A DNA stretch of 54,854 bases, counting the filler, from Jimgerdemannia flammicorona (Eukaryota): assembly GCA_003990765.1 (NCBI GenBank). It is 3 parts of 3 records of this genome, joined end to end, with 100 filler letters (N's around TTAATTAATTAA, not from the genome) between each part and the next. Parts side by side here need not be neighbours in the genome. Positions count along the whole stretch, not along the records: positions 18,320 to 36,537 come from RBNJ01002261.1; 2 more parts are not named here. One strand, written 5' to 3'. The notes beneath the pieces were generated by a model that had not been told where the DNA came from, did not search any database, and saw only the letters and a list, made by a program, of their open reading frames with translations. Positions 14,693 to 47,159 of the stretch are shown here, piece after piece. The number at the start of each line of letters is the position of its first letter. Position 1 is the first letter of the stretch. Position numbers and translations under genes: made by a program.

Positions 14693-15203
14693 ATGGCCGA
14701 TGTCGCGTCCTTTCCCGTCCAGAACCGCCAGCTCGCCCGTTCTATCGACGGCGTGCACACCGACGTCCTCGTCTCCGCCTTTGCCGACAGGATTCTCGTC
14801 GTCGCGACTCAGTATCGCAAAATCGGAAGCCTGGTGAGTCTCGAGCGGTTCGAACTTCCCCAATCGTACTCCCCTCCGTCTAATCCGCGCCTCCCACACC
14901 TTCGTAAACCCTTCCTTCACTCAGCTCCATACAACACTAGACACTACTTCACAGTTCTCTTCCACGCCCTCGACCGTCCCCACAACCACCCACTTCCTCC
15001 TTGGCTCCTCGACCACCATACAGAGCGGAGGTCATCTCTTGTATGCCTCGCATATCTCACAAACCATTGCTGCTATGAACCCAAGCGAGAAGCGACCCGT
15101 GCTCTTGGGTATCGCACTCAAGGACCTTGGTGACGACAACCTTGCGCGAAAGCGCGTGTTTGAACAATTAATGGAGATGATCAAAGAATGCAGAGTGTGG
15201 TGA
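14693..15203 (+). CDS. PSMG3: Proteasome assembly chaperone 3 (PAC3), 2 exons (14693-14833, 14925-15203)
   Basis: MADVASFPV..IDGVHTDVLVSAFADRILVVATQYRKIGSL | ..FLLG..RPVLLGIALKD..IKECRVW*. Intron GTGAGT..CAG. Confidence 0.88.
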
Positions 15204-15414: not shown

Positions 15415-17460
<2,046 letters not shown>

Positions 17461-18219: not shown

Positions 18220-18319
18220 NNNNNNNNNNNNNNNNNNNNNNNNNNNNNNNNNNNNNNNNNNNNTTAATTAATTAANNNNNNNNNNNNNNNNNNNNNNNNN
18301 NNNNNNNNNNNNNNNNNNN
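18220..18319. other. Assembly gap / contig linker
   Basis: N-run containing TTAATTAATTAA (18264-18275), which has stops in all six frames. Confidence 0.95.
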
Positions 18320-20339
18320 TTTTTTTAAAAAATAAATCTTCCATCATCTGAAACAGTTGCTTCAGCCGACCAAAGAAAAAAAGGATGCATACCATAGCAA
18401 ACTCCAGTGCACACTGGATCATTGCAAATATTGAGTTCCAATGTGTACAGACATCCAATATAAGCTCTTTCGGGGCTAAACTGATTGCCCTACAATGTGC
18501 AGCAAATTTGTCTCATCATTGTGGAGATGATCAGACCGATACAACTAGTTTGCACAGCTTGGAAATTATACTCAGGGCCCCTCCTCTCTCGGATGTTTTG
18601 TCTATGTGCGTAAGATAGTCCTGAACAGCAAGGTTCAGTATGTGGGCCTGGCATCACACATGGCAGCTTTCTGCACTGAAGGCCACATTTTCCTGTTTGA
18701 GGCTGGCCGCTAAACCTTGGAAAAATGTTGAGTTGTTTGTGGCATTATCCGTCATAATGGCCAAAATCTGTACTTGAAATATTTGGTTGACAAATTTATG
18801 TGAAAATAAGTAACCAATAAAATCTGGTTTGATTTAGGACCTCCCTCAAAATGCCGACCTGATGGCAAGCCCCCCTTTTTTACCTTGGTGGTGATCCCAA
18901 GCTCCCGGATACAACTAATAAAAGCATCTGTGATGTTGTCTCCAGAATGAGGGCCAGCAAGTTTGACAAAGTCAAGGGTGAGAGATTTAAGCTGCCAATC
19001 GAGATCAATCTAATGACCGGTAATGCCCAGAAACGAAATTGCATTGAGGGATGTCCATGTGTCAATTGTAAACGAAATTTGCCTGCTGAATTCTGCTTAT
19101 TGAATGTGAGGTTAAATTGGTGAGCTCTTTTATACAATTCAGCTTGCAAAGGTCATGGTGCTGCCCTTATTTTACCTGAAGTGTCTGGTGGAGATTGTCA
19201 TGCTCCTTCCTATAGGCCTCCAGGACATCTTTGTGAATAGTATCAGCACTTGGCAAATATGAATCATACTTGAGGAGGGCAAAGATACTATGCCATTGAT
19301 CACTCTTGATAGTTGTGAATGGCTGGTCTGTGCACACAATCCAGTGAATGAGCCAATTTCGAAATTCTGCTGAAGAGTATGGCTAAATATTTTTGATTAA
19401 ATGGCATTGTTGGTACAGAAATGGTCAGGCAATCGGATGAATGTACCCACCACAGCTTGGATGTCGATTTTATTTGTCTCTGTGTTCTTTTTGATTTTGT
19501 CAGAGTGCTTGTCTTTTATGTGTCGATTCATGTTCGAAGTTGTACCCCTAAGCATTATGAACTTCTGGCTGGTGCAGTTCATGGGGGTGAATGAAACAAT
19601 ATCATATGTGTCAAAACAATATCTTATGTGTGTCAAAACAAAGTGTCAATAGGTGTGCCTTAATTTTTTACCTGCAATAATTACAAACAACATCATCTTC
19701 TATCTTAGCACAATGTTGCCAGATTTCGGAGCAAGGATTGCATAGAAGGTGTGGAACTATCAGAGATGTTTGACTTGAAGCATCATTGGTACTGTGAACT
19801 GTTGAAGACTGATCTGTCAATATGTGTGTTTGTGTGTTTGCATGTGCATGTGTATGTGTGTGTGTGTATGCGTGTGTATGTGTTGTGTTGTGGATGCATC
19901 CGGCATATGAGTCATGTGGAGGATTTGGATTGGAGGATTCGGTTGAAGGATTCAGATGAGGATTCGGATTGAAGGATTCGAATTGGAGGATTCAAATTAG
20001 AGGATTTGAATTGGAGGATTCAAATTGAGTGATTCGGATTGAGTGATTCAGATTGAGTGATTCGGATTGAGTGATTCAGATTGGGGTGGTTCAGATGGGT
20101 GATTCGGATGGGTGATTCGGATGGGGCAATTCGGATGGAGCGATTTGGATTGAGTGATTCGGATTGAGTGATTCAGATTGGGGTGGTTCAGATGGATGAT
20201 TTGGATGGGGTGATTCAGATGGGGCAATTTGGATTAAATCTGAGTTGATTCAGATGGCTTCGGATTTGAGATTCGAATCAAACCATCATGTGATGAATCA
20301 AATCCAGATTTGATTCGAATTGACTCATTCGGAGCACTA
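18320..20339 (-). mobile_element. hAT (Ac/Restless-like) DNA transposon, 5' part, cut by the gap
   Basis: Terminus TAGTGCTCCGAA on the minus strand from 20339. BED-finger-like GTTSNMNRHIKDKH. Transposase motifs WIVCTDQPFTTI, PSADTI, IMTDNATNN, CQAHILNLAVQD and LILDVCTHWNS. Confidence 0.85.
19925..20330. repeat. Subterminal tandem repeats of the hAT element (GATTCGGATTGAGT-like, 13-14 bp units)
   Basis: Many degenerate copies directly inside the TIR. A (GT)n microsatellite lies at about 19822-19890. Confidence 0.85.
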
Positions 20340-20550
20340 ACAAGAAGCTAATGCCCTCTCTATAACCAACTTTCTGCACTGAGAAAATCATCTGCTGCTA
20401 CAAGATACCAAAGCAAATCACAACAGACTGCAGCACAGAATTTGTCAATGGATTCTATGAGATAATATATCAGAAATACAAGATCCAGCACATCAAGAAC
20501 ACTGCATACCACTCTCAAGGAAATGGACAGACAGAGAGAACCAACAAGAC

Positions 20551-21288
20551 AAGCTTAATATTGGAGATGGAATGGAGTGTCAGCAGGGTCTTGGCCTGGA
20601 TCTTTGGCCAAGTGGCTGGCAGGCAGCAGGGATTGGCAAGGAGTAGGACTGGGCAGATATCTAGTCATGGAGTGCTGAGGTGCAGAGGTGGCTTCCTTCC
20701 AAATTCTGGGTGGTATGGTAGTGAATGCTGTGGAGGAATATCATGTTGAATTACTGTACTGGACATATAGTGGATGGTGACCATTTAGATTGTGAGGAGT
20801 GCTACAATGTTGGGCAAGCTGGGAGTCTTGTACAGATGCCAGAATACTGGCTGGGAGAGTGTGAGGTTTTGGGGGACTTTTGGGTAGAAATAGGGAATAG
20901 GCAGGGTGTGGAGCATAGGCCAGTGGGGGCAGGAGGCCACTGGGAGGACTTGAGATCTTGGCTAGTGGGTGGTATAGGTGATAGTTGGTTCACTGTAGGA
21001 TGGGTGTTAGCAGTGTGGGTGAGACTGACTGGACATTTGCTTTTTGTATTTGAGGAGGGGAGGCAGATAGGGCTACAGGAGAAGGTACTATAGTAGGAGG
21101 AGTTGATCATGGCTTGATAGTGAGGATCTGTGAACAGAGTGGTGGGAGGGTAGAGATAGTGTTGGATAGAGTGGCCTTTTGTCAGATAGGAGTAGAGAGG
21201 GGGGGCCCTCCAAGGGGGATCAGTTAGAAGGCAGGTTCACTATATTTATATGGGATAGATGACATAATAAAGGAAGAAAGTCCAAGTG

Positions 21289-21337
<49 letters not shown>
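20551..21337 (+). mobile_element. 5'-truncated L1/Tx1-like LINE 3' end inserted in the integrase
   Basis: Poly(A) at 21295-21337. TSD GAGAGAACCAACAAGAC at 20534-20550 and 21338-21354. Degenerate C-terminal zinc finger CEEC..PE(H>Y)WLGEC. Confidence 0.8.
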
Positions 21338-21340
<3 letters not shown>

Positions 21341-22512
21341 AGAACCAACAAGACTCTCAAGAACATTCTGGCAAAAATCTCAGAGACATATGAGAATTGG
21401 GATAACTATCTCCCAACTGCCCTCTCTATCCTATGAGATATATAGTCACAGAGCATACACTTTACCCCAAGGGAGCTGCTCTTTGGAGTAGAAGATTCTG
21501 ATGGAACCTCAGCCACAAATCTAGACCTAACTTGGAGATGGGTTGATGCAAAAATCCAGAGACTATACCAAATCAGGAAGAAGGCTGAAAATTACATCAC
21601 CAAGTTACAAGCACTGATAAGGAAGAATGTGGAAAAGAATCACAAGACTCTAGAATCCTACTGTATCAAAATATAGTAGAAGCCTCATGGTTATGAAAAC
21701 TGGAGCCCAAATGGGAAGGATCCTTCTATGTGCAAGATATCAAGGGAACTACCTTCTGGCTTAGAAAAATCTCAGGGACCATACTGTCTACTATAGTACA
21801 TAGGAACAGACTCAAGAAGTACCATGAACCTATACAAGAAAAGCAAAACATGATGACTGCCTGTGAGGTTCTAGTCCACAAATTGTAACAGAATGTCCCA
21901 TGACCAGCAGGCTATCTGTCTGGACCATTCTCTAAGAGATACAGCACCAGTAACTACTCATCCATATGACTTTTGAAGTCAGAGGAGTTCAAACCATCAA
22001 CTGATTAGTCAAGATCAGATCAGGCCCTTGCTCTATATAAAGGAAGCAACCCTTCACCATCACACCAAAATACAAAGGGATGATGCCAGCCCATAAATAC
22101 TACTTTTTGACCCCTTGCTAGAGGTTATGGGATCAGCAAATTTTTTAGAACTGGACCAATGAATAAGGATGCTCGACAAGATCCTTATTCAGGAAGAAGA
22201 TGTAATAGTGACCCCAAAATGATGACATCAGCACAGAAGACAGTCTTTCCTTGTAAGTCACCAGACCAGAGCACAAGAAGATCATATGGCATATGAGATG
22301 AGCAATGATGACCAACTATGAGTCATTGTGACCACAGTATGGTATCTTGAGGAATATAAAAGAAGAATTAAGGAACTGCAGTAGCAGCAACCAACAAGAC
22401 TTATTAATCCCAAAATAGCTCAAAGACTTACCACAAACAAAATACCTGCTACTCGCCAAACCTCAAGATCAAGGAACCACCAAGGTATCTCAGTCAAAGA
22501 AAGAATGTTGGG

Positions 22513-23694
22513 CCCTTTCTCTGCTACCTTACTGGTCACAATGATTTGGTAGGCAACCTTCTGAGTCTACTTTCTACAATCATTACTCCCTCTACCTTGA
22601 GTTGGTTTGCTGTACCTATTGCAGGGTAGTGGGAGGGAGGCAATGGTGACAAGTTGCCCCTTTATCAGTATCAGATTAGTGTCTTCTCTACTTTTTTGTA
22701 GTTTCTAGTGCCTTCAGCTGTATCTGGAGTATATCTGTTTTGGTGCAGTACTTTCTTCCTTTCGTCATCACCAATAAGGTGCTGTCTCAGTATGTCTTGG
22801 GCTACATAGAGAGTCAGCTGACCTTGGGTGTCAAGTGCTCAGTATAGGTTACCTGCAGATCCTCAGTGTCTGTGGTGGGGCCCTCTGACTTTGGTGAGCT
22901 TTCTGGTGAGCACAGTTCTGGCATAGGTGACTGTTTTTCAGATGTTATCAGGATGGGAGGGGAGATGGCTGTCACAGATAGAAGGAAGGGTGATAATAGT
23001 GAACCAGTGGGGTACTAGGCTGGGGGCAGTCATCAGGGCTAGGGTGGACAATATTTCGGTGGGGCCTTTTGATTGACTGGTAGAGGGTGGGGTAGTGCAG
23101 GGGCCAGCATCCTGGCTGTACCCAACTGGAACCGGGAGCTGATACAGCAATGCAATTGAGGCCTGCAGGCTTGTGGAGTGGGGCCTTCCTCATTTGGCAG
23201 TACCCAACTGGAACTGGGAGCTGACATGGCAATATGATTGAGGCCCGCAGGCTCAGGGAGTGGGAGTTGGGTCTTTTCTGACCCTAGCCCATATGTAAGT
23301 CCTTTGCAGAAGGTTCTGCATATAAGTTCTTTACTCACTCACTTTAAATCCACTTTGCTCTCTGTTGTTGATTGGGGGATTTTTTCTTTACCTTGGGCTT
23401 TCTTTTGGGGTTCAGGGGGCTATTCTTTATTCAGTCCTGGCACTGCTAGATCTAATACATAGGTGTGCTCTTACATGTAAACAATGATCCAGTCCTGTTG
23501 AGCAGACAAGTCTGGTCTATATTATGGGGGTCAATATAGCCAGTGTTTGACAGGTATAGCTGGAGCAGTGGGACTGCTGGATAATATAGTAGCCTAGGTT
23601 AATGGGGGGATATTATTCAGTAGGTAGTGGGGGAGGGTTTTGGCCTATATAATCTAGGTTCTCTTCTAATAAAAATCCATGGGACTATGAGTCC

Positions 23695-23731
<37 letters not shown>
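22513..23731 (+). mobile_element. About 1.2-kb poly(A)-tailed non-autonomous retroposon, copy 1
   Basis: Starts CCCTTTCTC and ends with AATAAA..poly(A) at 23698-23731. End-to-end homologous to 39395-40555 in the opposite orientation. Confidence 0.75.
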
Positions 23732-23733
<2 letters not shown>

Positions 23734-24139
23734 ATTCCAAGACATCAGAAGAGCCATGAGGACCTGTTCAAGAAGGACTCCTAGTGTCAACCTGGGTACT
23801 GGTGACCCTTATCACTATATTCTCTACTGCCATGAAATGGAAACAAGGATCACCATTGTTACCAAATGCCTCCAAATGTGGCAGGAATACAAAATAAGAA
23901 ATCTCCTCTGCTGGGAGTTCCCATAGGCCAGCACTCAAGAGCTACAAGATGCCACTCCCATGAATATATATGAGGCAAGAACAGCTAAGAAGATCCATCA
24001 GATCTTCAGGCATGCACCATGGTTGATCCCCAACTTGGAGTATATTAGAGTCTCAGATTTCAGAGACCTGTTATCCTGCCATATCAATGTACTAGAAGCC
24101 AGAGTGGCTACAGAAGCCCAGTCCACTATCACCCTCAAT

Positions 24140-24563
24140 TGGTGCTCCCAATGAATCAAATCGAATCGAATTTGGCCCAAACTTGATTCAATTCAATCAA
24201 ATCAAGGGTCCAATTCAATTCAATTCGAATCAAATCAAAGGTCCAATTCAATTCAAAGTTCAATTCGAACCTTAATTTTCAAAATGTAATAACTCGACGA
24301 AAACTCATCTAAATTTAACATATTTTAGCCTGTTAGATTCACTGTATTAATGTGATTCTAACAAGCTAAAGTACGTTAGATTTGGATGAGTTTATGCTGA
24401 GTTATTGCATTTTTAAAATTAGGGTTCAAATTAGACCCTCAATTTGATTTGACTTTTGATTCAATTCGAATTAATTCGAATTGAAAAATCCCCAATTCGA
24501 TTTGACTTGTTTAACTCTCAATTCAATTCCATTCAAATTGATTTGACTTGTTTGGGAGCACTA
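24140..24563. mobile_element. hAT-family MITE (424 bp)
   Basis: TIR TGGTGCTCCCAA / TTGGGAGCACTA. 8-bp TSD CCCTCAAT at 24132-24139 and 24564-24571. AATTC(G/A) subterminal repeats. Confidence 0.9.
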
Positions 24564-25342
24564 CCCTCAATAGTGATAAAGTAGAAGACTTCTGGTATCT
24601 CATCCTTCAGGACAACCCAGACCAATTCCTACAAGGATTGATCTCAGTATTCCAAGGCCCAAGTATCTAAGTTAGATCTCCCCAAGACCCTACATTTGTT
24701 CCTTATTCTGTAGAAGAGAACTTCATAGATTGAAGAGCTCCTGATTTCTCCACTGCTGAACATGATGATGTCATCAGCAATGATGTCATCCCACATGACT
24801 TTGGAGTATGCAAAATGTGCGACATATATGAGACATGTGACCTATGCAATGACAACAATGATGACAACAAATTCATAGACCTCATCTCCTTTGAAGATAT
24901 TCTGACCTCTAAGAATGAGGATGAAGTCCCCATGGTCCTAAACTTTCTGCTCTAAGTTCCCTGTAATACTGAATAATGCCAGCACTGGCATTCTGAGGTA
25001 ACACAAGATTGTTCCAGCACTGGTATTCTGATGTGATACTGAATTATATCAGTATTCTGAACCTGTACAACCATCAGTACTGACCCTGGAACTTAGCAGT
25101 TTTTTCTGTCCTAGCATTTTATTTTGGTTATTGGAATTTATATTTAGCTTTATATCTTAGCAACTATTGAATTATATTTTGTATAAATACTCCTCTTATT
25201 TTCTCTGAAATAAAGTCAGTTCTGGTTCACTTACACACACTTCCTTGCAAGCAATCTAAAAGATAACAAGACAGTTAAAGATAAGAAGTTTGAGGACTAT
25301 AAGACCTTGGGAAGGCACTCCAATAAGAACTTACTTGTTACA

Positions 25343-26160
25343 AAATTGAGTTAGTCTAAAAGATATACCTTGAAGAGAATCTGGTATATTTGAAGGACTC
25401 AGTGAATACTATATGACAATACTCATCAAGTCTGCCAACCCATTCTCATCTCTCCAGTATTGGACATATGATCTCAGAAATCCAAAGATATAGCAGACAT
25501 ATGAGAATAACCATACTTTTATGAATAATAACAAAACAGAGTACTAACTAATCTGGTTGTCTCTGGTAAAATAACAGCTCATTGTTATTACTGCTAATAT
25601 AACTACTGAACTGAGTCTTATCAATGGGCTATGGCCCATATTGTTGCTGTCATTCAACATCTTGATAACAAAATAGATGTTGAAGTATTAGCTAGTTCAC
25701 ATCATCTAATTCAATTAAACTGACCTCTGGTATATACTTATCAATCTCCTTCATTGTGAGATATATCATAATTAGCTATATGGTCTTAAATCTAATATTG
25801 TCTCTATCTTCCCTATCACCTATAATGTTTTCCTTACTAGAATAGGCAGCTTTGCTCAGATACAACTTCCTCTTATTCTGGTCTATACTATTATAGATTT
25901 CAAAGTATAGGGAAAGATGTATAAAGATAGATTGATAGTAGACCTCACTAAGTCTCCAACTAGCTACTATAATATATAAAGCTCTTATATCCTTCTATCC
26001 TATATCAAAAAATTACAAGATCTCATAATATTATATTCTTTTGACTATAGTATTCTGAACAATCCACAGGACCCAAATCTGCTTATTCTAGAAGACTGTC
26101 TTGAAGCCCTGGCCAAAGAAATCAAAAGACAGTACTCTCTCATATCTAGCATATTGTAAT
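25343..26160 (+). pseudogene. Helitron Pif1-like helicase C-terminal relic
   Basis: NNKTE..LVK*QLIVITANITTELSLING; QIQLPLILVYTIIDFKV*GKM..LIVDL..YILLSYIKKLQDLIILYSF. These match helicase motifs RQ.P..AYA.T..K.QG.T and YV.LSR. Confidence 0.7.
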
Positions 26161-26836
26161 GAGTGAACAAAATCTGTACATCTAAAATCCACATATCTGA
26201 AATAAATGATTATTAATTTAGCACTAGCTAATTATCCACTATATCTAAGTTATACTATTAGCTAGTTCCTGTCTTATTTATCCTACCATACTTATTGCTC
26301 TGAACACTCTGTTCAACTTCAAACAAGTAACCTTTGTATCATATCCTATTTCTATAATTATCCCCAGTATAGTTTGGCCACAATAACCCAACTTGTTTAT
26401 ATAAATATACCTCAATTCAAATAGTGTAAAAAAGCAGAGTCCAAAACAGCTCAATAATATCTGAGAAATCAGTTAAATGATGCACCTTTATAGTAAAGTC
26501 AAGTTAATGAATATACCTTCATAGTTCTGCATTACAAAATTGATATATAATCTCCCATGTATCTCTATCTTCAACATCTCCATCTCCAGTATCTCTATAT
26601 ATATCTATCTCTAACATTTCTATCTTCAGTATCTCCATGTATATCTATCTCCAACATCTCCAGTATCTTACAATAATATACAGAAGTCTGAGCAGTTCAA
26701 TAATTCTTTCAACTCAGTTATTGAATCCTAAATCATCATGTCAGGATACTGACAGTTTCCTATATCCATGTCACTGTAATTTGACATTTATGCAGATATA
26801 GGTTTAACTGCTCCAGATAGGCTTGGACTACTTTTC

Positions 26837-28061
26837 GGGTGGCTTGGATGACTTGATTTGGTGGCAAACCAAATCCAGATTTCGCTATATTCTGATTTCC
26901 TTGTTAGAAAAAGAGGCAGCATGAAATTTCTAAGAGATAGAGCTATCTTCTTGAAACATGGTGTGGAGATAGCCTCAAATTACTAGAAAATCATTATCCC
27001 AATCTCTGTTTCTTGAAATATCTCTTGATTGTGGAGATATTTGGACTTGAAGTTTTGATTAGGATTTTAGAAGAACTTGAATAACTTGTCAATGGATTGG
27101 AGAATGGTCATCAGCTTTGGATATATTGTTGCTGATATCCCTGGCGATTTTAGGAGATGTTTGCTCTCAGGGATCCTTTGTGGTTCTCCAGATATAGGCT
27201 AGTTTCTCATGGTAGTGTATTTTGAGGTATCTCCTGGACGTTTTGGTGTACATCTCTGCGAAGAGAGGTTATAATCTCGTTAATTTCGGTGGTAATGTTT
27301 TTAAATATCTTGGAAAGCTCTGTTCCAAAGGGGAGGTCCATGGGGTTCGTATTGAGCTCGAACAATTCAATCAAAGCATGGGAACCAGTCTCCGGTTTTG
27401 ACTTGATTTTACTGGGGTAAGGAATTTGGGTCAACTGAGACTGGAATGTTTACTGAATTCAGTATGTGGATCTTTACTGGGGTCATTCTGACTGGGAATT
27501 CTGGTGTATAGGTCTTCCTGTAATTTGCTCAACTGGGAACTAGGAATGAATCTTGTTCAACTGGGAAATGTTCTAGGTGGCTTGAATGGCTTGATTTGGT
27601 GGCAAACCAAATCCAGATTTCTCTATACTGACTGATTTCCTTGTTATGGAAAGAGGCAGCATGAAATTTCTAAGAAATAGAGCTATCTTCTTAAAACTTC
27701 ATGTGGAGATAGCCTCAAATTACAAGAAAATTATCCTGATCTCTGTTTCTTAAAATATCTCTTAGTTGTAAACTTGAAGTTTTGATCAGAGTTTTGGGAG
27801 AACTTGAATAACTTGTCAATGGATTGGGAAATGGTCTTCAGCTTTGAATTAGTTGTTGCTGAGGTCTCTGGAAATTTTTGAGAAGTGTTTGCTCTTGGGA
27901 ATCCTTGGTAGTTCTCTAGATATGGGCTAGTTTCTCACAGTAGCATATTTTGAGGTATCTCCTTGACATTTTTGTGTATATCTCTGCAGAAAAGAGTCAT
28001 AATCTCATTAAACTTAGTGAGAATATATTTAAGGATGTTGGCAAGCTCTGTTCTAAAGAGA
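26837..28061. repeat. About 490-bp direct duplication (26837-27334 and 27575-28061) separated by CAACTGGG-type minirepeats
   Basis: Co-linear copies visible by eye (GGTGGCTTG..GGCAAACCAAATCCAGATTTC..AAGCTCTGTTC). The second copy is cut by the Penelope-like insertion. Confidence 0.8.
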
Positions 28062-31000
28062 AGTGGAAGAAGAGGGTCCAGCAGGAGCTATGGGAGCAAA
28101 CCCAGAGCCAGTGTCAAAGTGAACAGAAGATATGTAGAAGAGTATATATAAGGGGGATAAACAAAGAACATAACTGAAAATACATCAGCTGTTTATTGCT
28201 ATGTAAAAATGTGGTCCTTATATACAAAATATGATATCCCAAAAGGGAGGATGTGCCACAACTTGGGGTGAACCAAATTAGGCACCAAATGACTACTAGA
28301 GATAAGTAGAGATAAAGAGAGAGCCAATTCCAGTTGCAGGATAAAAATCACAAATAAATACAAACAAAACAAATTCAAATTAAGATTAAAAAATATCTGC
28401 AGACCCTGGAGGGGTGAGCATAAGTGAGGGGTGAGGCCAAATGGAGAAAGCTGCAGTGAGCCCAAGTGAAGTGAGAGGCTGAAGATAGTAGAGGGGAGCA
28501 GAGTGAAGGCTGAGACCCCAGAGTGAGTGCAAGACCCCAGAGGGGGTAAGGATGTTTTTTAATCCTCTCTGGAAGAACCAGAGGCATCAAAAGATAATGA
28601 AAATGCAAAATAAGAGTAATGGAATAGAGAAGAAACAGAAGGAAGATGCAAATGAGCAATAAGAGAGTGTTGAGAAAGAGATGAAAGTCTATGGTGGGAA
28701 AGTGAAGAGTGCAGGACAGTGTCAGGGCATTGTGTAACCCAGAAAGCACAATCAAATGGTACAATAAGAATTGGGGGAGGGAAAGAAGAGGGGGTTCAGA
28801 ATGGGTAAGGGGGGGAGGGAGGAGAGAAAAGAGGGGTAAAGAGAAGAGAGGAGGGAAGAGCAAACAACAGACCATTCAACAGAAAAATTGGGTAGACACA
28901 ATGATGGACCATGAAGTTGCCAAGAACTCAAACAGCAGACACTCAGTCAGAATGACAGGAGCAGCATAATGTAAGACAACAAATCTAATCTCAAATACAT
29001 TCAAGAAGAGTGCGACAAGGGTGATTAGAATAGAAGTCAAGGAACTGTTGGGAGTATGGGAAGTGATAATAAACAATAGTTCAGAAGGAAGAAAGAGAAA
29101 TAGAAAGATCCAAAAAGGGGATACTAGTAGTACTATATACCTAGGTAATAGAATAATGGAGAGGGTAGATGTTATGAAATATAATAGAAATATCAATACC
29201 AGTAATAATGAGAATAATAAAGTCATCAATATATCAGCAAAAGAAGATATCCCCAGTCCAGAACACAATTTAAAGAGGTGAAGAAGGATCATATATCACA
29301 TGAAGTTCATGGGCCAGGCCAATTAGGATAGTAAGAGTAGGGGTATAATTCATTTCTATAGTAATACCAAAAGTCTGATGAAAGGAGCCAAGGGCCAACT
29401 TAAAGTAGTTGAAGTCACACACAAGGAGGGTGAGCTCAATGATAGAAGCCAATGAGACTGGGGAATTCAGAGGGAAGACAATGGAACCCAAGAAGTAGAG
29501 ACAATCATTAATCTTATTAAAGCAAATTATAGTATAGAAAGAGGAGAAATCACTAAAGATCAGATGGGAAAAATGGTGAACAGACATAATGGTGGAGCAA
29601 AAGAGGGCGAGCTCCTGAGTATCATGAAGAATAGTGTACTCAGGCCCAAGATGGTGTTGAAGTAAAGCCATCCAACAGAGAAAGAAGTGGGATACCCACT
29701 TTGAAATCTCAGTGGTCAGTGAATTATATATAGCTATAATGGGACACCAAGCCAAAACGAGCTTGTGGACTTTTGGAAGAGTATAAAAAACTGGAAGATG
29801 AATGTCTGGAGAGGACAAAGAGTCCTGGAAGATGTTAAAAATAGGGTTTGTAAAAGGAGAATTCAAAAGCAATCTGGTATGAGTCAGAGAAACCCAGAGA
29901 AGAGTAAGAATCTCATCTAATTTAAGAGCACTAGACTCATAAGCCACAGCTTGAAGGAGGGCAGAAAGGCCATCAAGATAGAGCAATTTAAGAATAAGTG
30001 CAAAACTCTAATTCTTATTAGTGACTGTAAGCAAATGCAAAGACAATTGCTTGACTGATTTAAGTGCAGTATGCATGGTATAGTCCAAAACTAAGCAAGA
30101 GTGAGCATGTCCAGAAATGGACAGTGAGCAAGCCATGTTGAGAAATATGTAGTATAAAGAGACATTGGGAGGGGGGACCCAATCACTGGAGATATAATAG
30201 CAAGAGGGCATCTCACTATGATCCTCAAAAAAGATAGCAAGGTCAAGAGTATGATGAAAACATATAAGATGAGCTGGATTGGTGAGAGAGAATTGTGAGG
30301 GAGTTGCAGGGAAAACAAAACAAGGCCCCAGGGAAAGGGCAAAGACTTGAAGAGAAGAAAGAGAGCAGTCAGCTAAAGAAAAAGGAGGAGACAAAAGTAT
30401 GCTAAGAGAAGAATAAACCTAAAAATTTAGGACAAGCAACTAGGAAAGGTGAAGGGGGGGTAGTATGAGGAATCACTCAGAGTGTACTAGAAGCAATGAT
30501 GGAATCCAAGAAGGAACAGAGACACTGGAAGAGAACCAAGCTAGGGGGAAGTTTAAGAGCAAGAGGTCTTCTCTTTCCCTCTGACTTTTTTTGAAGGCAG
30601 TGAGTCTGACAAGCAGAAATATACCCCATCAGAGTACCAGATCTTACAGCCACAGACTTTTGTACAGCCCTTACATTTAGAAGCACAGAGAGAGAAGGCA
30701 GAGGAGGAGCCAACAGAGGAGTCAGAGGGAGAGTGAGCAACCAAAGGAGCAGCAGTGCAAGGGACACTACCATAGGAGCAGACAGATTTGGCTGGATGCC
30801 AATAGGCATGGTGGAGGTGACCAGAGCAGACAGTATAGAGCTAAGCTCCAATGGAGCAAGAATTAAGTTGGCAGCCACACTTAGAAGCAGGGGGAACAGA
30901 GGAGGCCTGGCAGGAGAGAGGGATCAGGAAGAAGCTGATGAAGCCTTATTGGGCTTGGCAGGGATCTTAGCAGGGGCCTTGGTGGTAGCAGTAGCAAAGG

Positions 31001-32495
31001 AACAAACCTCAACATGAGCAACAGTATGAGCTTCAGCATAAATGGCCTTAGAGACCAAAACTTCAGAGGAGGCAGATAGGGGAGCAGTAGTGGTGGTATA
31101 AGCAGAAGTGACAGCATATAATGATTTCTACTCATAAAGTCAAGTGACAAAAGAGATACTAGTGAGAAGAAAATGACAAATAGCATCAATGTCAGCAGCA
31201 GTAAAGAGAATGTCTTGGATGGCAAAGCTACAGAAAGGAGCAGTGTCTGCAAAATGGGAAGAGGTAAGAGCCACAAAAGAGACATAGATATGGTAGAAAG
31301 AAGTAGAGGTAGCAGCAGTAGTAGTGGCAGCAGTATTGGTGGTAGTAAGCTTGGCAGCAGCAGTGGCAGCACAACCTCTTCAGAGAGGGCTTGGTGGTGG
31401 GCCTTGGGGAGAATAGAGTAATGGATGGTGGGTGGAGCAACAATGTTGACATTATGGCAGAGATGAGTCTCTTTGGCAGAGAGGGCAAGAACTGACTGGA
31501 ACTGAGTGAGGAGTGGATGACCAGATGGACAAAGGTCCAAAGAGAGGAAAAGGATAGCAGATAAGATATAGATCTTGAATGAGACAGTGGTAGGGATAAA
31601 AGCAGGGGGAAGGAGAGGAGGAAGAACCTTGTCCATAACCTTGTCAACAGCAATAGAGGCCCCAAGAGCAGATGGTATAGTAGTGGAAGAAGAGGGCCCA
31701 GCAGGAGCCATGAGAGCAAACCCAGAGCCAGTATTAAAGTAAATAAAAAATATGTAAAAGAGCATATATAAGGGAGATGAATAAAGAATGTAACTAAAAA
31801 TGTATCAGCCATTTATTGCTAGATAAAAACACAGTCCTTATATACAAAATACAATATCCCAAAAGAGAGGATGTGCCACAACTTAGAGTGAACTGAATTA
31901 GAAACCACATGACTGCTGGAGATAAGTAGAGATAAAGAGGGGGCCAATCCCAGTTGCAGGATAAAAATCACAAACAAATACAAATAAAACAAATCTAAAT
32001 CGAGATTAAAAAACATCCACAGACCCTGGAGGGGTGAGCATGAGCAAGGGGTGAGGCCAAATGGAGTGAGCTGTAGCAAGTTCAAGCAAAGTAAGGGGCT
32101 GAAGGCAGTAGAGGGGAGCAGAGTGAAGGCCAAGACTCTAGAGTGAGCATGTGACCCCAGAGGGAGCAAGGATGTTTTTTAATCTTGATTTGGATTTGTT
32201 TTGTTTGTATTTGTTTATGATTTTTATCCTGCAACTAAGATTGGCTCCCTCTTTATCTCTACTTATCTGTGGTTTCTAATTTGGTTTGCCCTAAGTTATG
32301 GTACATTTTCTCTTTTGGGACATCATATTTGTATATAAGGACTACATTTCTACATAGCAATAAACAGCTGATGTATTTTTGGTTATGTTCTTTATTCATC
32401 TCCCTTATATATACTCTTCTACATATCTTTCATTTGCTTTAACATTAGCTCTGGGTTTGCTCCCATAGCTCCCACTGGGCCCTCTTCTTTCACTA
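28062..32495 (-). mobile_element. Penelope-like retroelement with pseudo-LTRs; no GIY-YIG endonuclease visible
   Basis: Direct pLTRs at 28062-28564 and 31682-32184, plus an inverted partial copy at about 32170-32495. ORF1 from ATG 31711 (MAPAGPSSS). RT motifs FYTLPKVHK..CPII, DFSSFYTI, NYF..HQTFGITIE and YIDD (29222-29233). Confidence 0.8.
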
Positions 32496-32843
32496 TTGAA
32501 TCTTACTCAACTGGAAACATTCTGGTGCTGAGTCCTGCTCAACTGAGAACTCTGATACTACAGCTATACCTTTCACTACCACACCTTTTACTGCTATACC
32601 CTTCATGTCCACACCCATTACATACTTCTATTTTGTTACTCTAATATTCTTATCTTCTCCAAGAGCTTGATATATCTCTTCTCTTTCCTCATCTCATGAG
32701 CCTTCAATGAGCATCTTTCTTTTGGGAGCATGTTGTAGCAGAAATATCACAGTATGGGATAGAAATAAACCACTGCTGTTTATTGAATAGAATGTAAATA
32801 AATTACTTCAAAATAATTTCTGTAAATATTAACTGAATCTGTC

Positions 32844-34892
32844 TGTAAGTGCACAACCTCCAAGCCACCAAAATTACACATCACCCTCTGAACAAGTCAC
32901 TGAAATCACACATGACCTCTGAACAAATCTGGAAATTACCTACTTGATCACGAAGCTAAGTCAAACCAAAGTCACAGCACATAAAGCTGAGTCAATACAA
33001 AGTCACAGAACACAAGATTTATACCTACAGAATCTTACCAATCAGGATCAAATGCATATATACCGAGCACCGAGATGCATCGAATCAGAGAACCAAAACA
33101 AACAACAACCATAACTTCCAAACACACAAACATGACCACCAAGATCTATACCCATATCCACACTGACATTTGGAATGCCATTGTCAATGGAGCCACATCC
33201 CCTCTGCCCCTCATGAATATTCATAGCCTAGCACCCCTCTACTTCATAGAAGCCCGATGGAATGCTCTGAACATGCTTGGTGAGGCCTACCGAATTGGAC
33301 AAATCTCAAGCTACTACTAGATCGGCCATCTCCTGGAAGACATGATCGAACACCACCATGATACAGACATTACCCAGATGTCCCAACACCAGAAGCTCAT
33401 CACCCGCAAACATCAAGAACTCTTCTACAAGTACAGTACCATTATACCCCGCCTCTGAGTTACTACAGCTGAAATGGTTGCTACCCTGTCCTATGGCCAA
33501 ATTGATGACATGATACAAGAACTCAACCACAAGTACCTCGAGTATGTCAAAACCACAGACAGAACCTTCCCACACCCCAATGATCATATCCTACAAATGC
33601 CTCAAGTTGGATATGCCATGAAGGACATTTATGATATAATCTACTTCAATGAAGATGAAGCAGAAGACAATGATCCCTCTGATGCCGACATGACCTCTAG
33701 CCAAGGATCCTTGCCAACCCTGATCACATTGCCAACCTTGCCAATGAACTTACAACAATTCATAACAGCCTATGAGACTTATTGGGACAATGACCACTGG
33801 TATGAATACCAACCCGCTTTTACCCCTGATTACTTCAACTATAATGAAGAGACCGGAGAACACAACCTGTACCTCCAGACAACCCTTGAGATTGAACCAA
33901 CCACTCCACCACCTGAGTACAAGTGATATAAACCACAGCCACCAGCCTACTACAACTCTAAGACTCATAGTGCTGTAACCTATAGAAGGTATACAGATAG
34001 TGAAACCAATGAAAGTGAAGATGATGCACCCCTCCTTCACCCACCAATACTTTATCCAGCATATGAGACAGACAATGCTATCTTGTGGGATAGAGACAAA
34101 GTTCCAATGTATTATTACCTCAGCGAACAAGGAGAAGTAATCCGCAAACCACTTTTCCTGGATAACTACTTCATCAGAGATAATGCAATTGATAGTGATG
34201 TTATTGAGAACTACCCAGACAGTACCTAAACCATAAATAGCCTAGTAGTCATAGTATAGTTAGAGTAGCCTTGTATGATATGACTGTGAACTGACTCAGC
34301 ACAGACAATCTCTTGATATGTCAGATCACACTTGTACTATGTGACTGTATTTCGACTCAGCAAAGCACTTAGTGCTACATCCATATTCAGCATAGTTAAG
34401 ATAGCCCCTCACTAGTATAAATATCCCCTCCCCCAGTCCTCAGAATCTCAGACTCGAATACACAAGAACATTCCCTATAATATCTCTTTACACAACTACT
34501 CCTAGTATAGCAATATCATGAATAGCAAATAAACCCATTCAAATAACCCACAAACCACCCTTAAGTAAATCCACTCCCCATTAGGTCCTACTCCTAACCC
34601 CATTACGAAATTTCCTAATTGGGTATTGTCTGCAGCAATATGCTGATTCAACTAAGCTGGTCTTAGTTTCTTGAACTTCCTGAAATATGGAAAATCCTGA
34701 ACATCCAGAACTAGTCCAAAAGAGGACTTTGGTTGAGACGTCAATCCAAACTTGAAATCAATAAGCATAGAGGACATACTCCATACAAAATTGATCTTGA
34801 CCATAAGAAAACGGTCTTCTAGAACATCCAGAACTTCCAGAAAACCCTTCCAGAACTATATAACGGTTACTCTAAAAAGCAACCCTCTTACA
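32844..34892 (+). mobile_element. 2049-bp solo LTR
   Basis: Ends TGTAAG...CTTACA. 5-bp TSD CTGTC at 32839-32843 and 34893-34897. TATA-like GTATAAATA at about 34415 and AATAAA at about 34528. No gag or pol. Confidence 0.85.
33132..34229 (+). pseudogene. LTR-embedded unknown ORF, copy B (365 codons, 3 internal stops, no frameshift)
   Basis: One frame joins the tracked ORFs 33075-33320 and 33474-33926 and runs on to TAA 34227-34229. The internal stops are TAG/TGA, each one C>T change from CAG/CGA. Confidence 0.75.
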
Positions 34893-35868
34893 CTGTCATA
34901 ATGATAGTAGAGGTATAAGTTCTAAAAGAATAAAAACAAGTAAAGCAGATGTACATTGATACAGTATTTGTTTTTATTTTGGTGTCAATCCATAACAACC
35001 TCACATTACTTATATACCTGAATTCTGAAGTACTGTGTTTTCTTGAAACATATCTATGAATACAGAATCACTAAGCCACAATCAATATCTCTCTGTAAAA
35101 TATAGAATCACTAAGCTACAATCAATACCTCTGACATCACATAGAACTAGCCTGTCATTATGAACTCACTCATAGTAATGTTACATATCAAAAATATTAG
35201 TATATATATATATTTATAAAATAATATATATACATAAAGAATATATAATACAGTAAATAAATAAATACTACTGAATAAGAAAATATATTAGAATATTTAT
35301 ATATAGAAGATAGAAAAATATATAAATATCCAAAATATACAAAAATGTTTAAATGTTTAAAGAGTATATATCAGAGACTATATGTTGTTTAGTTATTAGT
35401 ATTTTTCTACTACAATTATACATATTCTAGTTGCCATTTTCTCTATTTTTCTACCTCTCTTTATTTTTATATTACCTATATACCATATAAAGTCCAATAC
35501 TAGCTCTGTGGTTTCACTCTTATCTATCTTCAACTACATACTGATGAGGGTACCCTTGTGAGCTTTTTTATTATCCCTAGGCAAAATATTGATAAGCAAA
35601 TTATTACAGTCTATTGCTAGATATATACATATATAAGGATTTCTCTATAAAAATAATCTAATAAAGAAATGAAAATAAAAGAAGAATATAAGATCAGAAT
35701 TTTTTCCAAATCTTGCTAAGTTAACAATAATTCTAAAAACAATAAACACCTAATAACAGATATAGAGGTACTAGATATCATATCTTATAATATCTCATGA
35801 CTCTACAAATATACTTATGATAAAACAGAGATGCTCTCTTAGTAGCATCCAGAGTTCAGTATATATAT

Positions 35869-36537
35869 TGTGACGTCTACAATTGACCCTATCCAAATTC
35901 GGAGTACCCTGTGACCACAAGATCAGATGACATTATGGTGCAATAACTGGTGACCAGCCCAATCTGTCAAGTGATTTCACCAAAAGAAGACAAGATGACC
36001 CGAGCCAAAATGAAGACCACATTATTTAAGGAACCCTACTCCGCCTCGAGGATCGGCACCAAAGAACCAAGTACCCACCACACAATGCCTCCTATTCGCC
36101 AAACCAACCAGACCTCCCGCCGCTCTATCCCTTTGCCTGGCCCAAAGACCCTGATCTTTGAAGCTATCAAGAAGGCCATCTGGCGCCCAGATACTTCCGA
36201 ACACTTGAACTTCTACACTGAGGACCTTGGACACTTCATCAACTACCGGTATATAATGACCCAATAGCTCAAAGACACTACCGAACGAATGACCCTCTGG
36301 CATGACTACGAAATTGGACACCGCCTTCGCAATGAGACTCAAGAAGGCGACCAGGAAGACCTCATTGCCGAAATGTTAACCACCAGCCGGCTAATCAAGA
36401 GAGCCCTCCATGTCCATCAAATCTTCCACCATATTCCCTGGGCTATAGCACACTTGCAAGGAGTAACAGCTGGTAGCCTCTCCCGCCTATCAACCGAAGA
36501 TGCTGACTGGATAGAATCCGAAGTAGCCAATGCTATT
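35869..36537 (+). mobile_element. Start of a third long LTR (TGTGACG...) carrying LTR-embedded ORF copy C from ATG 36085, cut by the gap
   Basis: Abrupt compositional change at a TG. ORF MPPIRQTNQTSRR..LIFEAIKKAI..LWHDYEIGHRL..RALHVHQIFHHIPWAIAHLQG is homologous to copy A. The LTR call is by analogy only. Confidence 0.6.
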
Positions 36538-36637
36538 NNNNNNNNNNNNNNNNNNNNNNNNNNNNNNNNNNNNNNNNNNNNTTAATTAATTAANNNNNNN
36601 NNNNNNNNNNNNNNNNNNNNNNNNNNNNNNNNNNNNN
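36538..36637. other. Assembly gap / contig linker
   Basis: N-run containing TTAATTAATTAA (36582-36593). Confidence 0.95.
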
Positions 36638-36669
36638 GTATAAAAAAAAAAAAAAAAAATCCGCCGCAG

Positions 36670-38358
36670 CTATGATGACTTCCGCGTCTTCGACACAAGT
36701 AACCGTCTGTGGGAAACCCCGACCCTGGCCATCGGCAGCACCAAACCGCTTGCACGCATTGGACACACTGCCACCCTACTCCAAGACGACCGCATGATTA
36801 TTCTGGGCGGCAGCACCGCCCAGCTCAGCAATGTCGGTTTCTGGGAGCTTCAGCCGACCTCCATGGCGGATGTGCTGATTTTTGACATGACTAACCGAAT
36901 CTGGTTGAATGTCAACGCCAATGGAGTCGTGCCGCGGAACATGAGCGGTCATAGCGCAGTTCTGGGTATGTATATGTGTATTTTGTACATAATTATTTTT
37001 TTGGTGTCGAGGATCCCATTCAGGCGGAGATTCTGTGTGAATGGTCCTAATGTCGTTGAATCTCCCTTTGGATACTCTGCAGCGTTGGACGGGAAAATCG
37101 TAGTCTTTGGCGGTGAGGTGGCAGATGGGATTTCCAACGAGGTGTTCCTCCTGGACACGTCGACCTTCACATGGTCAAAACCGTCCATTACAGGACTCCC
37201 GCCGGTGGCGAGGAAGGAACATTCGGGTGGGTGTTGATCGTCGAAGGGACGTTTTTTTCGCTTATTTTGGTTTATTGTATTTGCATTTGATACAAAAGAT
37301 CCAAACCATCCTTTCAATTCGTCCTCTCGCCACCCACAGCCGTTTTCTATAAGAGTCAAATGCTCGTTCTCTTTGGCCGGTCCAGCAACTCTTCTGTACT
37401 CAACGAGGTCTCCATCCTCGACACTGTCCGCTGGCGCTGGACTCCAGGATTCTTTGCCTCTGGCTCTCCCAGTTTGACCTCAGCCTTCGCTGCCGCCTCC
37501 GTCGCTCGAACCCAAACTCCAAATGCAGAAACCAGCATTCACCTAAGCAACGACACTCTGAATGCCGTCGGTGGGCCCGGTGGCCTCACCGGCATTATTA
37601 TCGGCTCCCTCGTCTGCATTGCCCTCGTTGCCTTCCTCTTTGTTCGCAAGCCCTGGCGCAACACCACCCCGGCGCTCATCTACCTCCCCCAATCCAACAA
37701 CGCGGGCCCCGGCTACTCCGCCATTCCCGCCAACACGGGCACCGTCCGCTCCGCGGTACACGGTGCAGCGTACCTCCTCCCAGGTGCTGTCGCCGAGGCT
37801 GAGGCCGCTGCCGGGACAACACAGCCACTTATTGGCGGTGCGCTCGAAGCACAGGAGGCTCACGAATCCCGGCAGCTCAACTCCCGCCATCGCTCGGGCC
37901 ATACCCGTCCCCCGCTGCCGTCCGGCTTCAACGCCCCACCGCCACCGCCCATCCCGCCCCCGCACCTTTACAACGCTCCGCTCGATCCCCCGCCGTCCTC
38001 ATTTGGTTTGCCCGGCTTCAATGCCTCATTGCCACCGCCCAACTATCACAACGCTCCGCCTGATCCCCCGCCACAGCAGGCGAGCTACATGGCGACCGCC
38101 TCACACCATAATTCGCTTGTGTCCACGAATTCCACCCCAGCCCCTGGGATGCGGCAGTTTGACGCGGAGGACGCGAAGTGGATCGAAGCTGAGGATGACG
38201 AGGACGAGGAGGTTGTGATCGGAGGCGGCGGGCCAACGCCGCATGGGTCGAGACCGGCGAGCGGGATTATCGGAGGGCCGTCGAGGTCCTCATCGGGGCC
38301 GGATAACTTTCTGATGACCGCGGAGAGACAGGAGGAATTGGCGCGAGCGATGTCATGA
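36670..38358 (+). CDS. Kelch/galactose-oxidase beta-propeller single-pass membrane protein (5' end lost in the gap)
   Basis: Kelch blades RIGHTATLL..MIILGG, MSGHSAVL..IVVFGG and RKEHSAV..MLVLFG. TM helix LTGIIIGSLVCIALVAFLFV followed by RK. Pro-rich cytoplasmic tail. Two GT-AG introns. Confidence 0.85.
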
Positions 38359-39292: not shown

Positions 39293-39394
39293 ATCGAGAA
39301 AATTCGGATTCGAAATAATGCTTTTGGAATATGCTGCGAGCATTATTATAAGATGATTGTTGAAATTTGACCAACAATATAAATATTAGCTACT

Positions 39395-40555
39395 TTTTTT
39401 TTTTTTTAATGGACTCATGTCCCGCGGAATTTTATTGGAAGGGAACCTAGACTATATAGGCCAAAAACCTCCTCCACCACCCACCAAGCACTGCCCCCCC
39501 ATTAACCTAGGCTAGCTATTGTCCAGCAGCTCAACCATGCCAGACGCAGCAGGGCCTATGTTGGCCCGCACCTCATTCTGCACACCATGCTCTCCCTACC
39601 ACCAGGGGAAACCCAACCATACGTCAATGACCAAAAGCGCATGCCTGAGAACCCAACATATGTACAAGACCACGCCCGAGCCGAATAGAATAGCCCCTAC
39701 CACCCTAAAGAGAATGACAGGCAAATAAAAAACCCTCATCAAAGTACAACATGGTGGGTAGGGCCTGGTTCTCCCAGTTGAGGTGAGTAAAGGACTTACA
39801 TGTGAGGTGGGAGGAAAACCCCCAATACCCCACTACTCAAGCCTGTGGGCCTTGATCACATTGCCGTGTCAGCTCCCAGTTCTAGTTGAGTGTAGCCAAG
39901 ATGTCTGAAATGGGTAGTCTTGGGCCCCTGACTCCCTGCTGACTGCCAAAAGAAGCCAATAGTGACACCTACCACCTAACCACGCCGCACCAATCAAAAG
40001 GCCCCACCAAAGCAGCACCTGCCCCAGCCCCAATGACCGCCCCCAGCCTGGCACCCTACTGGTTTACCATAATCGCCCTTCTGCCTATCTGTGACGGCCA
40101 TCTCCCCTCCCATCCTGACAACACCCGAAAAGCAGTCACCTATGCCAGAACTACACTCGCTGGGAAGCTCGCTAAAGCCAGAGGGCCCCACCACAGGCAC
40201 CGAAGACCTGCAGGTAACCTACACTGAGCACTTGATGCTCAAGGTCAGCTGACTCCCTATATAGCCTGAGACATACCAAGACAACACCTTGTTGGAGACG
40301 GCAAAAGGAAGAAGGTGCTGCACCAAAACGAGTACACCCCAGATGTAGCCGAAGGCATCAGAATCCGTGAAAAAGTAGAGGAAGCACCAATCTGACACCG
40401 ATAAAGGGGCAACTCATCATCATTGCCCTCCTCCCACCATGCCCCTGTAGGCATAATAAACCAACCCGAGATAGAGGGGGTAATAATAGGGGAAAGAGGA
40501 CTTAGAAGGTCGCCTACCAAACCTTGTGACCGGTAAGGTAGCGGAGAAAGGGTGA
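39395..40555 (-). mobile_element. About 1.2-kb poly(A)-tailed non-autonomous retroposon, copy 2 (younger, CpGs retained)
   Basis: Poly(T) at 39394-39407. TSD AAATATTAGCTACT at 39381-39394 and 40556-40569. Same 5' start CCCTTTCTC as copy 1. Confidence 0.85.
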
Positions 40556-47000: not shown

Positions 47001-47159
47001 ATAAATATCCTTATTCTCTACCTAAATAAAGCTCAGAATATTTTCTCTCAGAAATTCTTTAAGAATACTTAAACCTTTAAGTATCTCTTCAAGCTACTTT
47101 AGGCCAACTAGAACCTCCAGATTTAGCCACTTCCTCTTAAAGAAACTAGAACTATTATA
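41099..47159 (+). mobile_element. Full-length degenerate Ty3/Gypsy chromovirus: LTR-gag-dUTPase-PR-RT-RNaseH-IN-chromodomain-LTR
   Basis: 464-bp LTRs at 41099-41562 and 46696-47159. TSD AAAAT at 41094-41098 and 47160-47164. PBS-like T(G>A)GTAGCAGC. PPT at 46683-46695. Zinc knuckle CFFC..(H>Y)IATKC, PR LIDNRA(DSGA), RT YLDD, IN QTDRQTEHMNR, chromodomain YEAEKILD..YLVK..WEP at 46221-46368. Confidence 0.95.
42621..43034 (+). pseudogene. dut: dUTPase domain inside the retrotransposon polyprotein
   Basis: All five trimeric dUTPase motifs in order: ISLDL (AGxDL), P*SRL (PRSGL), NIIDSDFQG (GVIDxDYRG), ED*VAQMI (GDRIAQ) and QDQKDFGST (RGxxGFGST). Same frame as the zinc knuckle and protease. Confidence 0.9.

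Follow-up and report, generated by a model that had tools for sequence, protein, structure and literature searches.

A candidate accessory gene probably borne by long terminal repeats of Ty3/Gypsy-type elements in Jimgerdemannia flammicorona

Long terminal repeat (LTR) retrotransposons are usually described as gag-pol placed between non-coding LTRs. A 54,854-nucleotide stretch of the genome of Jimgerdemannia flammicorona (GenBank assembly GCA_003990765.1; ‘the window’) raises the question of whether an LTR in this organism can itself carry a protein gene. The window consists of three scaffolds joined by linkers of the form N44-TTAATTAATTAA-N44 (18220-18319 and 36538-36637), and features on opposite sides of a linker are not genomic neighbours. 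The middle scaffold (18320-36537) is a nest of transposable elements (TEs) and holds three open reading frames (ORFs), referred to here as copies A, B and C. A first-pass annotation of the sequence had described them as a homologous ORF family embedded in three unrelated LTRs; the protein strings that it quoted are all found at the places given when the sequence is read. We consider it reasonably probable that A and C, and probably B, represent a lineage-specific accessory gene located in the U3 region of the LTR of one diverged Ty3/Gypsy clade, with its own TATA box and using the poly(A) signal of the LTR. The three reading frames are:

22442-24955, plus strand: copy A ORF, decayed, with coding pieces at 22442-c.22500, 23732-24139 and 24563-24955
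33132-34229, plus strand: copy B ORF, 365 codons with 3 stops
36085-36537, plus strand: copy C ORF, first 151 codons with one TAG stop

Copies A and C are similar at the protein level, with 28 of 108 residues identical in an alignment without gaps (BLASTP, E 4e-11) and a match within the window at E 5e-8 (tblastn). A profile built solely from nine database members, with the window copies excluded, recovers both in a six-frame scan of the window (C at 3.9e-63; A at 5.8e-58 and 1.9e-26). A phmmer search of 1.84 billion representatives, using C with an X at its one TAG, returned 10 proteins at E<=0.001, seven of which were taken as family members (P0004-P0009 and P0011). The remaining matches (P0010, P0012 and P0013) were set aside as chance matches on account of their repeat-rich sequences and of alignments scattered over many short segments. 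P0014-P0017, P0019 and P0020 were added through cluster look-ups and a profile search. All family members come from short metagenome contigs (0.6-4.8 kb) of the European Nucleotide Archive (ENA) or the Joint Genome Institute (JGI) and are named at most ‘hypothetical protein’. No homologue was found outside short TE-like contigs among the 1.84 billion representatives or in 5.8 billion clusters, and no fused or longer form was seen among 5974 candidates of 600-2000 amino acids (aa), a negative that is weak evidence.

Intact relatives span 246-342 aa (P0019, 325 aa; P0007, 342 aa; P0008 and P0015, 247 aa; P0016, 246 aa). P0019 is 79% identical to C over 151 aa, and P0008 matches one half of A at 83% (136 aa) and the other at 62% (135 aa) in tblastn. 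Relatives of B and C are present in contigs from soil-metagenome runs. A pattern search for related DNA yielded one locus, L001, from 220 pattern matches in metagenome contigs, none from 156 in viral contigs and none from 47 in genome contigs. L001 contains an intact ORF of 291 codons, which stays open in none of 20000 shuffles. Identity among family members is just 26-56%, and the persistence of open frames across lineages this divergent supports a real family under selection, as the first-pass annotation had proposed. On these comparisons, A and C both belong, in decayed form, to a single genuine protein family, which is new to the databases searched.

All three copies are pseudogenes in the window. 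In A, ATA replaces ATG and the frame is disrupted by two insertions as well as three stops; the frame of B contains three stops and that of C one. The TAG stops in A and C fall at positions occupied by Gln in intact relatives. Because of these TAG positions and the ATA start of A, we read the window copies as pseudogenes decayed by transitions, from a family with intact members elsewhere. The C>T decay noted in the first-pass annotation is real by this measure, yet uninformative on protein function. Copy C is also truncated, by the end of its scaffold and not by the genome: it does run to the gap at which it had been described as ending, and that gap is a scaffold linker.

The position of the ORF within an LTR is clearest for copy B, which lies in the following unit:

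32844-34892, plus strand: solo LTR B, 2049 bp, TGTAAGTG...CTCTTACA, TGTAAG...CTTACA
32839-32843, no strand: target-site duplication CTGTC, left copy, read in the window sequence
34893-34897, no strand: target-site duplication CTGTC, right copy, read in the window sequence

The termini of this unit, TGTAAGTG and CTCTTACA, have TG..CA ends and form an inverted repeat over 7 of the 8 terminal bases, and a perfect 5-bp CTGTC duplication lies on either side. We identify 32844-34892 as a solo LTR because of these termini and the flanking duplication. It contains a first TATA-like box at 33057, a second (TATAAA) at 34416 and an AATAAA at 34528. Both ends had been pointed to independently, before the termini were read, by breaks in soil contigs, from four public runs, that were aligned to 32500-36537. 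No RNA run is listed with this sequence, and the assignment of run X4 to RNA is a guess. At 32844, one contig of run X4 carries 174 unmatched letters before that position and two contigs of run X5 jump back there; one X5 contig has a purine-rich 29-mer (AAAGCAGAAGATAAT) immediately before 32844. The break at 34892 is found in 3 records of run X4. Contig cover is little or absent over 32500-32769 and 34930-35874, which carries no evidential weight, and depth over 34255-34929 exceeds that over the B ORF, depth being unsuited to ranking the parts. Judged by its termini and duplication, the B ORF is shown to lie inside a solo LTR. The interval of 33132-34229 given for B in the first-pass annotation delimits the ORF correctly, with the LTR itself extending over 32844-34892; its wider claim that the ORFs lie within LTRs is borne out for B and likely for A and C.

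The membership of B in the family is less secure. In the six-frame profile scan, B ranks fourth, behind C and the two matches to A (33144-33521, E 0.014; next match, 0.068). Residues 1-140 of B score 13.2 bits against the family profile (hmmsearch), a value reached by 0 of 3000 shuffles, whose maximum is 10.2. Aligned by hhalign, the same collinear stretch gives E 6.6e-4 at a probability of 27% and E 0.0019 at 14%; alternative alignments lend no further support for homology beyond the N-terminal domain. BLAST finds no match between B and either A or C. The fit of B to the family is weak and confined to the N-terminal 140 aa, and the C-terminal two thirds have a separate intact relative of their own, P0021 (247 aa, 61%). 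Based on the profile, shuffle and hhalign results together with P0021, we regard B as a genuine conserved ORF whose kinship with A and C is likely, not proven. The three-way homology originally claimed is in this sense upheld between A and C and borderline for B. An insignificant profile alignment, or a match to a Gag/Pol or host family, had been named as outcomes that would speak against the idea; neither is found for A and C, and B gives a divided result.

Copies A and C are likely to lie inside LTRs as well, as indicated by the following features:

20366-21887, plus strand: 3' end of pol (putative integrase remnant) of the A-bearing element, split by a poly(A) retroposon
22191-22200, plus strand: polypurine tract AGGAAGAAGA, directly before the TG of LTR A
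22201-25342, plus strand: putative 3' LTR with copy A, TGTAATAG...TGTTACA
35869-36537, plus strand: 5' part of LTR C, starting TGTGACG, with TATTTAA at 36023; the scaffold ends there

The ORF of copy A starts 241 bp past the purine tract and TG. The proposed LTR A has the ends TGTAA and TTACA and includes a TATAAA at 22355, a second TATAAA at 25182 and an AATAAA at 25209; its start is well placed and its end is taken from the TTACA terminus alone. Two insertions divide the ORF: a poly(A) retroposon (22513-23731), which is 80% alike to 39394-40552 on the minus strand, and a miniature inverted-repeat transposable element (MITE) of c.420 bp (24141-24562) flanked by an 8-bp duplication (CCCTCAAT). 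About 300 bp separate the purine tract from the end of the integrase remnant at 21887. Another poly(A) retroposon, 777 bp long (20561-21337) and flanked by a target duplication of 17 bp, interrupts this remnant. The remnant matches Pfam rve at E 0.041, below the cut-off, and its best matches among PDB sequences are retroviral integrases (E 0.007-0.025), with Ty3 Gag-Pol at E 0.29; it is also collinear with the integrase of a Gypsy element at 45496-45699 (E 0.002 and 0.076, tblastn). No second LTR of the A-bearing element is present within the window, and the 5' part of this element is missing. For copy C, the ORF starts 216 bp past the TG, and soil contigs match LTR C from 35875 on.

The copies share a layout that extends beyond the coding sequence. 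TATA-like boxes precede the ORF start by 87 bp in A, 75 bp in B and 62 bp in C, within the 60-90 bp reported in the first-pass annotation, and in both A and B a TATAAA and an AATAAA follow the ORF within the same LTR. A and L001 have in common a 30-nt leader before the ATG, with a score reached by 0 of 200 shuffles. The non-coding DNA of the three LTRs is unalignable; their description as unrelated holds to that extent and fails with respect to the common A/L001 leader and the uniform layout. This leader and the same layout in all copies favour descent within one diverged clade, which would be simpler than repeated capture of the ORF. The stretches to the left and right of the ORF are unalike in A and B, their observed scores being reached by 36 of 200 and 42 of 200 shuffles, respectively. 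A 28-nt motif occurs twice in L001 (L001:170-197 and L001:1481-1508), upstream of the ORF and downstream of the TGTAATAAG that follows it (0 of 200 shuffles reach the score).

The protein has a basic N-terminus (MPP.R...), followed by W.EYEIGH.L and AKK.HQIFRH.P motifs within a helical domain of ~130 aa, a DNPDQ.LQ.L...FEGPPI motif and, finally, an acidic, disordered tail that contains short hydrophobic motifs. The acidic tails of A and B noted in the first-pass annotation are present. An AlphaFold model of P0019, computed from 11 aligned sequences, has a mean predicted local distance difference test score (pLDDT) of 57.6 and consists of a helical domain at residues 20-151 (10-residue blocks with pLDDT 53-91, most of them 78-91) followed by the disordered acidic tail. 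Pfam searches with seven members gave no match at E<=1 for six and two chance matches at E 0.04 for the seventh, with no gag family in any, and nothing was matched on A, B or C among 110 stop-free window ORFs (38 + 72). The family profile has no match among PDB sequences at E<=1. Foldseek found no match at E<=0.001 to the PDB, among 365 matches with E<=10, and none at E<=0.001 in BFVD. None of 48161 chains reached Z>=5 in VIA-align, the best Z of 4.0 being below the meaningful level for helical models, and the ESM Atlas gave no usable match for P0019. No capsid fold occurs among the matches of this middling model (mean pLDDT as above).

Because Pfam, PDB-sequence and fold searches all came back empty, the protein is, as far as sequence and model allow, no recognisable Gag or Pol fragment and no known host family. 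The claim that the family is undescribed agrees with the absence of known domains in Pfam and PDB sequences. The nucleic-acid-binding, transactivator and anti-silencing roles suggested at first pass find no support; the model is a helical domain without a fold match. A helical domain joined to an acidic tail that bears hydrophobic motifs hints at an adaptor or regulator, and our guess would be that the protein acts in trans in such a capacity, for instance on LTR transcription or host silencing. Any one named activity, taken singly, would have a poor chance of being the right one.

Several observations weigh against the placement of the gene in the LTR. The integrase evidence upstream of A is weak but consistent (E 0.002-0.04), and only short words mark where LTR A ends and where LTR C starts. 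The soil-contig joints at LTR B were placed at 82% likeness and depth 2 and may stem from other organisms or repeats; the termini and duplication of LTR B were read from the window itself, apart from the soil contigs. The membership of B in the family is borderline, at hhalign probabilities of 14-27%. In L001, the ORF is followed directly by a 12-nt purine tract and TGTAATAAG, and in A the word TGTAATACTGA, nearly that of the LTR start, recurs 8 nt past the stop. Downstream of the ORF, A and B each hold the parts of a compact LTR (TATAAA, AATAAA, ..TTACA). The TGTAATA words behind the ORFs of A and L001 resemble the beginning of a shorter LTR, a reading under which the ORF would be internal. 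In the sequences examined, neither a complete element with the ORF in both LTRs nor an ORF-holding LTR followed by a primer-binding site was observed.

These post-ORF features are what commend the idea of an additional internal gene in the position of env, with the ORF lying between pol and a short 3' LTR that begins at the post-ORF TGTAATA; the purine tract and TG upstream of A would then be look-alikes. The purine tract and TGTAATAAG directly past the L001 stop, the TGTAATACTGA just past that of A and the downstream TATAAA, AATAAA and ..TTACA end of both A and B would all be accounted for. Extra ORFs inside LTR retrotransposons are well known, as brtn (PMC8365987) and ORF0 (PMC3485330) illustrate. 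An internal fragment plus a 3' LTR could not, however, obtain by integration the TG..CA ends and perfect 5-bp duplication of the ORF-holding B unit, other copies break exactly at 32844, and neither A nor B has a purine tract before the post-ORF word. We rank this explanation lower, and consider it unlikely, because it leaves the duplication-flanked B unit unexplained and because the stretches on either side of the ORF do not repeat one another. Both readings could be reconciled if the element had two alternative plus-strand priming sites, with a long and a short form of the LTR as the outcome.

Plant TR-GAG elements are small non-autonomous LTR-ORF-LTR elements, and a divergent Gag-like structural protein of such an element, in place of an accessory factor, would also be helical and encoded by an ORF that begins soon after an LTR-like start and, in L001, ends at a purine tract and TG. 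The protein resembles Retrotrans_gag and its relatives in being small, helical and encoded beside an LTR. It differs from gag and capsid families in matching no Pfam gag family at E<=1 and in having no zinc knuckle in the family sequences; the fold matches, of which the best reaches Z 4.0, include no capsid, and Foldseek matched nothing at E<=0.001. The stretches before and after the ORF are not mutual repeats in A or B, and the flanks of L001 have just the 28-nt motif in common. For A and B, an LTR-ORF-LTR mini-element is ruled out because these stretches are not alike by the shuffle counts above, and for the family as a whole a Gag-like identity appears very improbable. Alternatively, the ORF could be a host gene picked up by the element, or a passenger that does nothing for it, and look conserved merely by riding along. 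No function is assigned to the protein, and capture of ORFs by LTR retrotransposons is documented, for example in bdelloid rotifers (PMC5408684). This explanation has to contend with the lack of homologues outside short TE-like contigs, and ORFs that stay open at 26-56% identity with the TATA box and leader kept are hard to square with a neutral passenger; we judge it quite improbable.

If the gene does reside in the LTR, as we favour, the LTR would open with TG and carry a first TATA box ~150-215 bp further on, followed by a 60-90-nt leader rich in A and C and by an ORF of ~250-340 codons; a second TATA box, then AATAAA and the ...TTACA end would complete it. The gene would sit in U3, upstream of the main LTR promoter. 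The first TATA box is predicted to give a monocistronic mRNA of ~1.2-1.5 kb with its 3' end at the poly(A) signal of the LTR itself, and the second would start the genomic RNA. With such an mRNA and poly(A) signal, the 5' LTR, the 3' LTR and any solo LTR would each amount to a complete expression cassette, so that every LTR, solo copies included, would be a gene. The contigs of five relatives (1.0-2.4 kb) would fit the predicted short mRNA if they represent RNA. The post-ORF purine tract and TGTAATA may constitute an alternative plus-strand priming site, the use of which would yield short, gene-less LTRs. It is a tentative proposal, and one more doubtful than the placement itself, that a Ty3/Gypsy clade keeps a trans-acting LTR gene with solo LTRs as autonomous suppliers of the factor and the post-ORF priming site as a switch between long and short LTRs.

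The remainder of the window contains other mobile elements and a few genes. A hAT-like DNA transposon remnant (18320-20335, minus strand) shows subterminal repeats of 14 bp in tandem at 19917-20255 and, on the minus strand at 19400-19645, a weak match to zf-BED (E 0.044); the 420-bp MITE (24141-24562) that splits ORF A has a terminal repeat similar to the end of this remnant. No ORF with a Pfam match was seen in the poly(A)-tailed retroposons at 20561-21337, 22513-23731 and 39394-40552 (minus strand). An unclassified repeat element at 28059-32494 has direct repeats of 506 bp (84% alike) set 3620 bp apart, a further copy in inverted orientation at 32171-32494 and, between the repeats, long minus-strand ORFs (245 and 307 aa) without a Pfam match; it is adjoined by ~490-bp tandem units at 26838-28058 (82% alike). 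A complete-looking Ty3/Gypsy element at 41101-47159 has 462-bp LTRs (89% alike) and protease, reverse transcriptase, RNase H and integrase matches; it lacks an extra ORF and shows no resemblance to the A/B/C family. The outer scaffolds carry host-type genes for a PAC3 proteasome chaperone (14838-15203, plus strand), a fragment of a flavin adenine dinucleotide (FAD)-binding protein (15415-16008, minus strand) and a Kelch-repeat protein (36644-38358, plus strand). The closest Atlas clusters of one host ORF are fungal, at scores of 0.87-0.88, below the level taken as a lead.

Accessory ORFs of LTR retroelements are known, and it is the position inside the LTR that would set the present family apart. 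The brtn gene is an extra ORF in the internal region of the BcGypsy1/Boty element of Botrytis cinerea (PMC8365987), ORF0 of rice Retrosat2, RIRE3 and RIRE8 is internal and upstream of gag-pol in elements of which Retrosat2 has unusually long LTRs of >3.2 kb (PMC3485330), and LTR retrotransposons of bdelloid rotifers carry captured ORFs (PMC5408684). As described, such ORFs resemble the present family in being lineage-specific, without assigned function, added to gag-pol, conserved within a clade and fast-diverging. They differ in being internal, whereas at least copy B lies inside an LTR, the comparison being one of descriptions and not of sequences. The literature searched, of which coverage was partial, contained no LTR-borne protein gene of a retrotransposon.

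The mouse mammary tumour virus carries its superantigen ORF, sag, in the U3 region of the LTR, and to our knowledge protein genes inside an LTR are textbook for few retroviruses only. Like sag, the ORF described here would be a protein-coding frame that lies within the LTR, past the purine tract, so that each LTR copy contains it. Unlike sag, which belongs to a mammalian retrovirus, it is found in fungal-type Ty3/Gypsy elements without env and has a TATA box of its own. The two show no sequence relation, the family profile having no PDB sequence match at E<=1.

An LTR-borne gene recasts the solo LTR as a possible gene, beyond a promoter scar, in that even a leftover single repeat would hold the whole gene. 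The family offers a compact candidate for a retrotransposon accessory factor in fungi, and any activity found for it would be new information because the protein has no known domain or fold. If our reading is true, solo LTRs left behind by element deletion could go on supplying the factor to their family.

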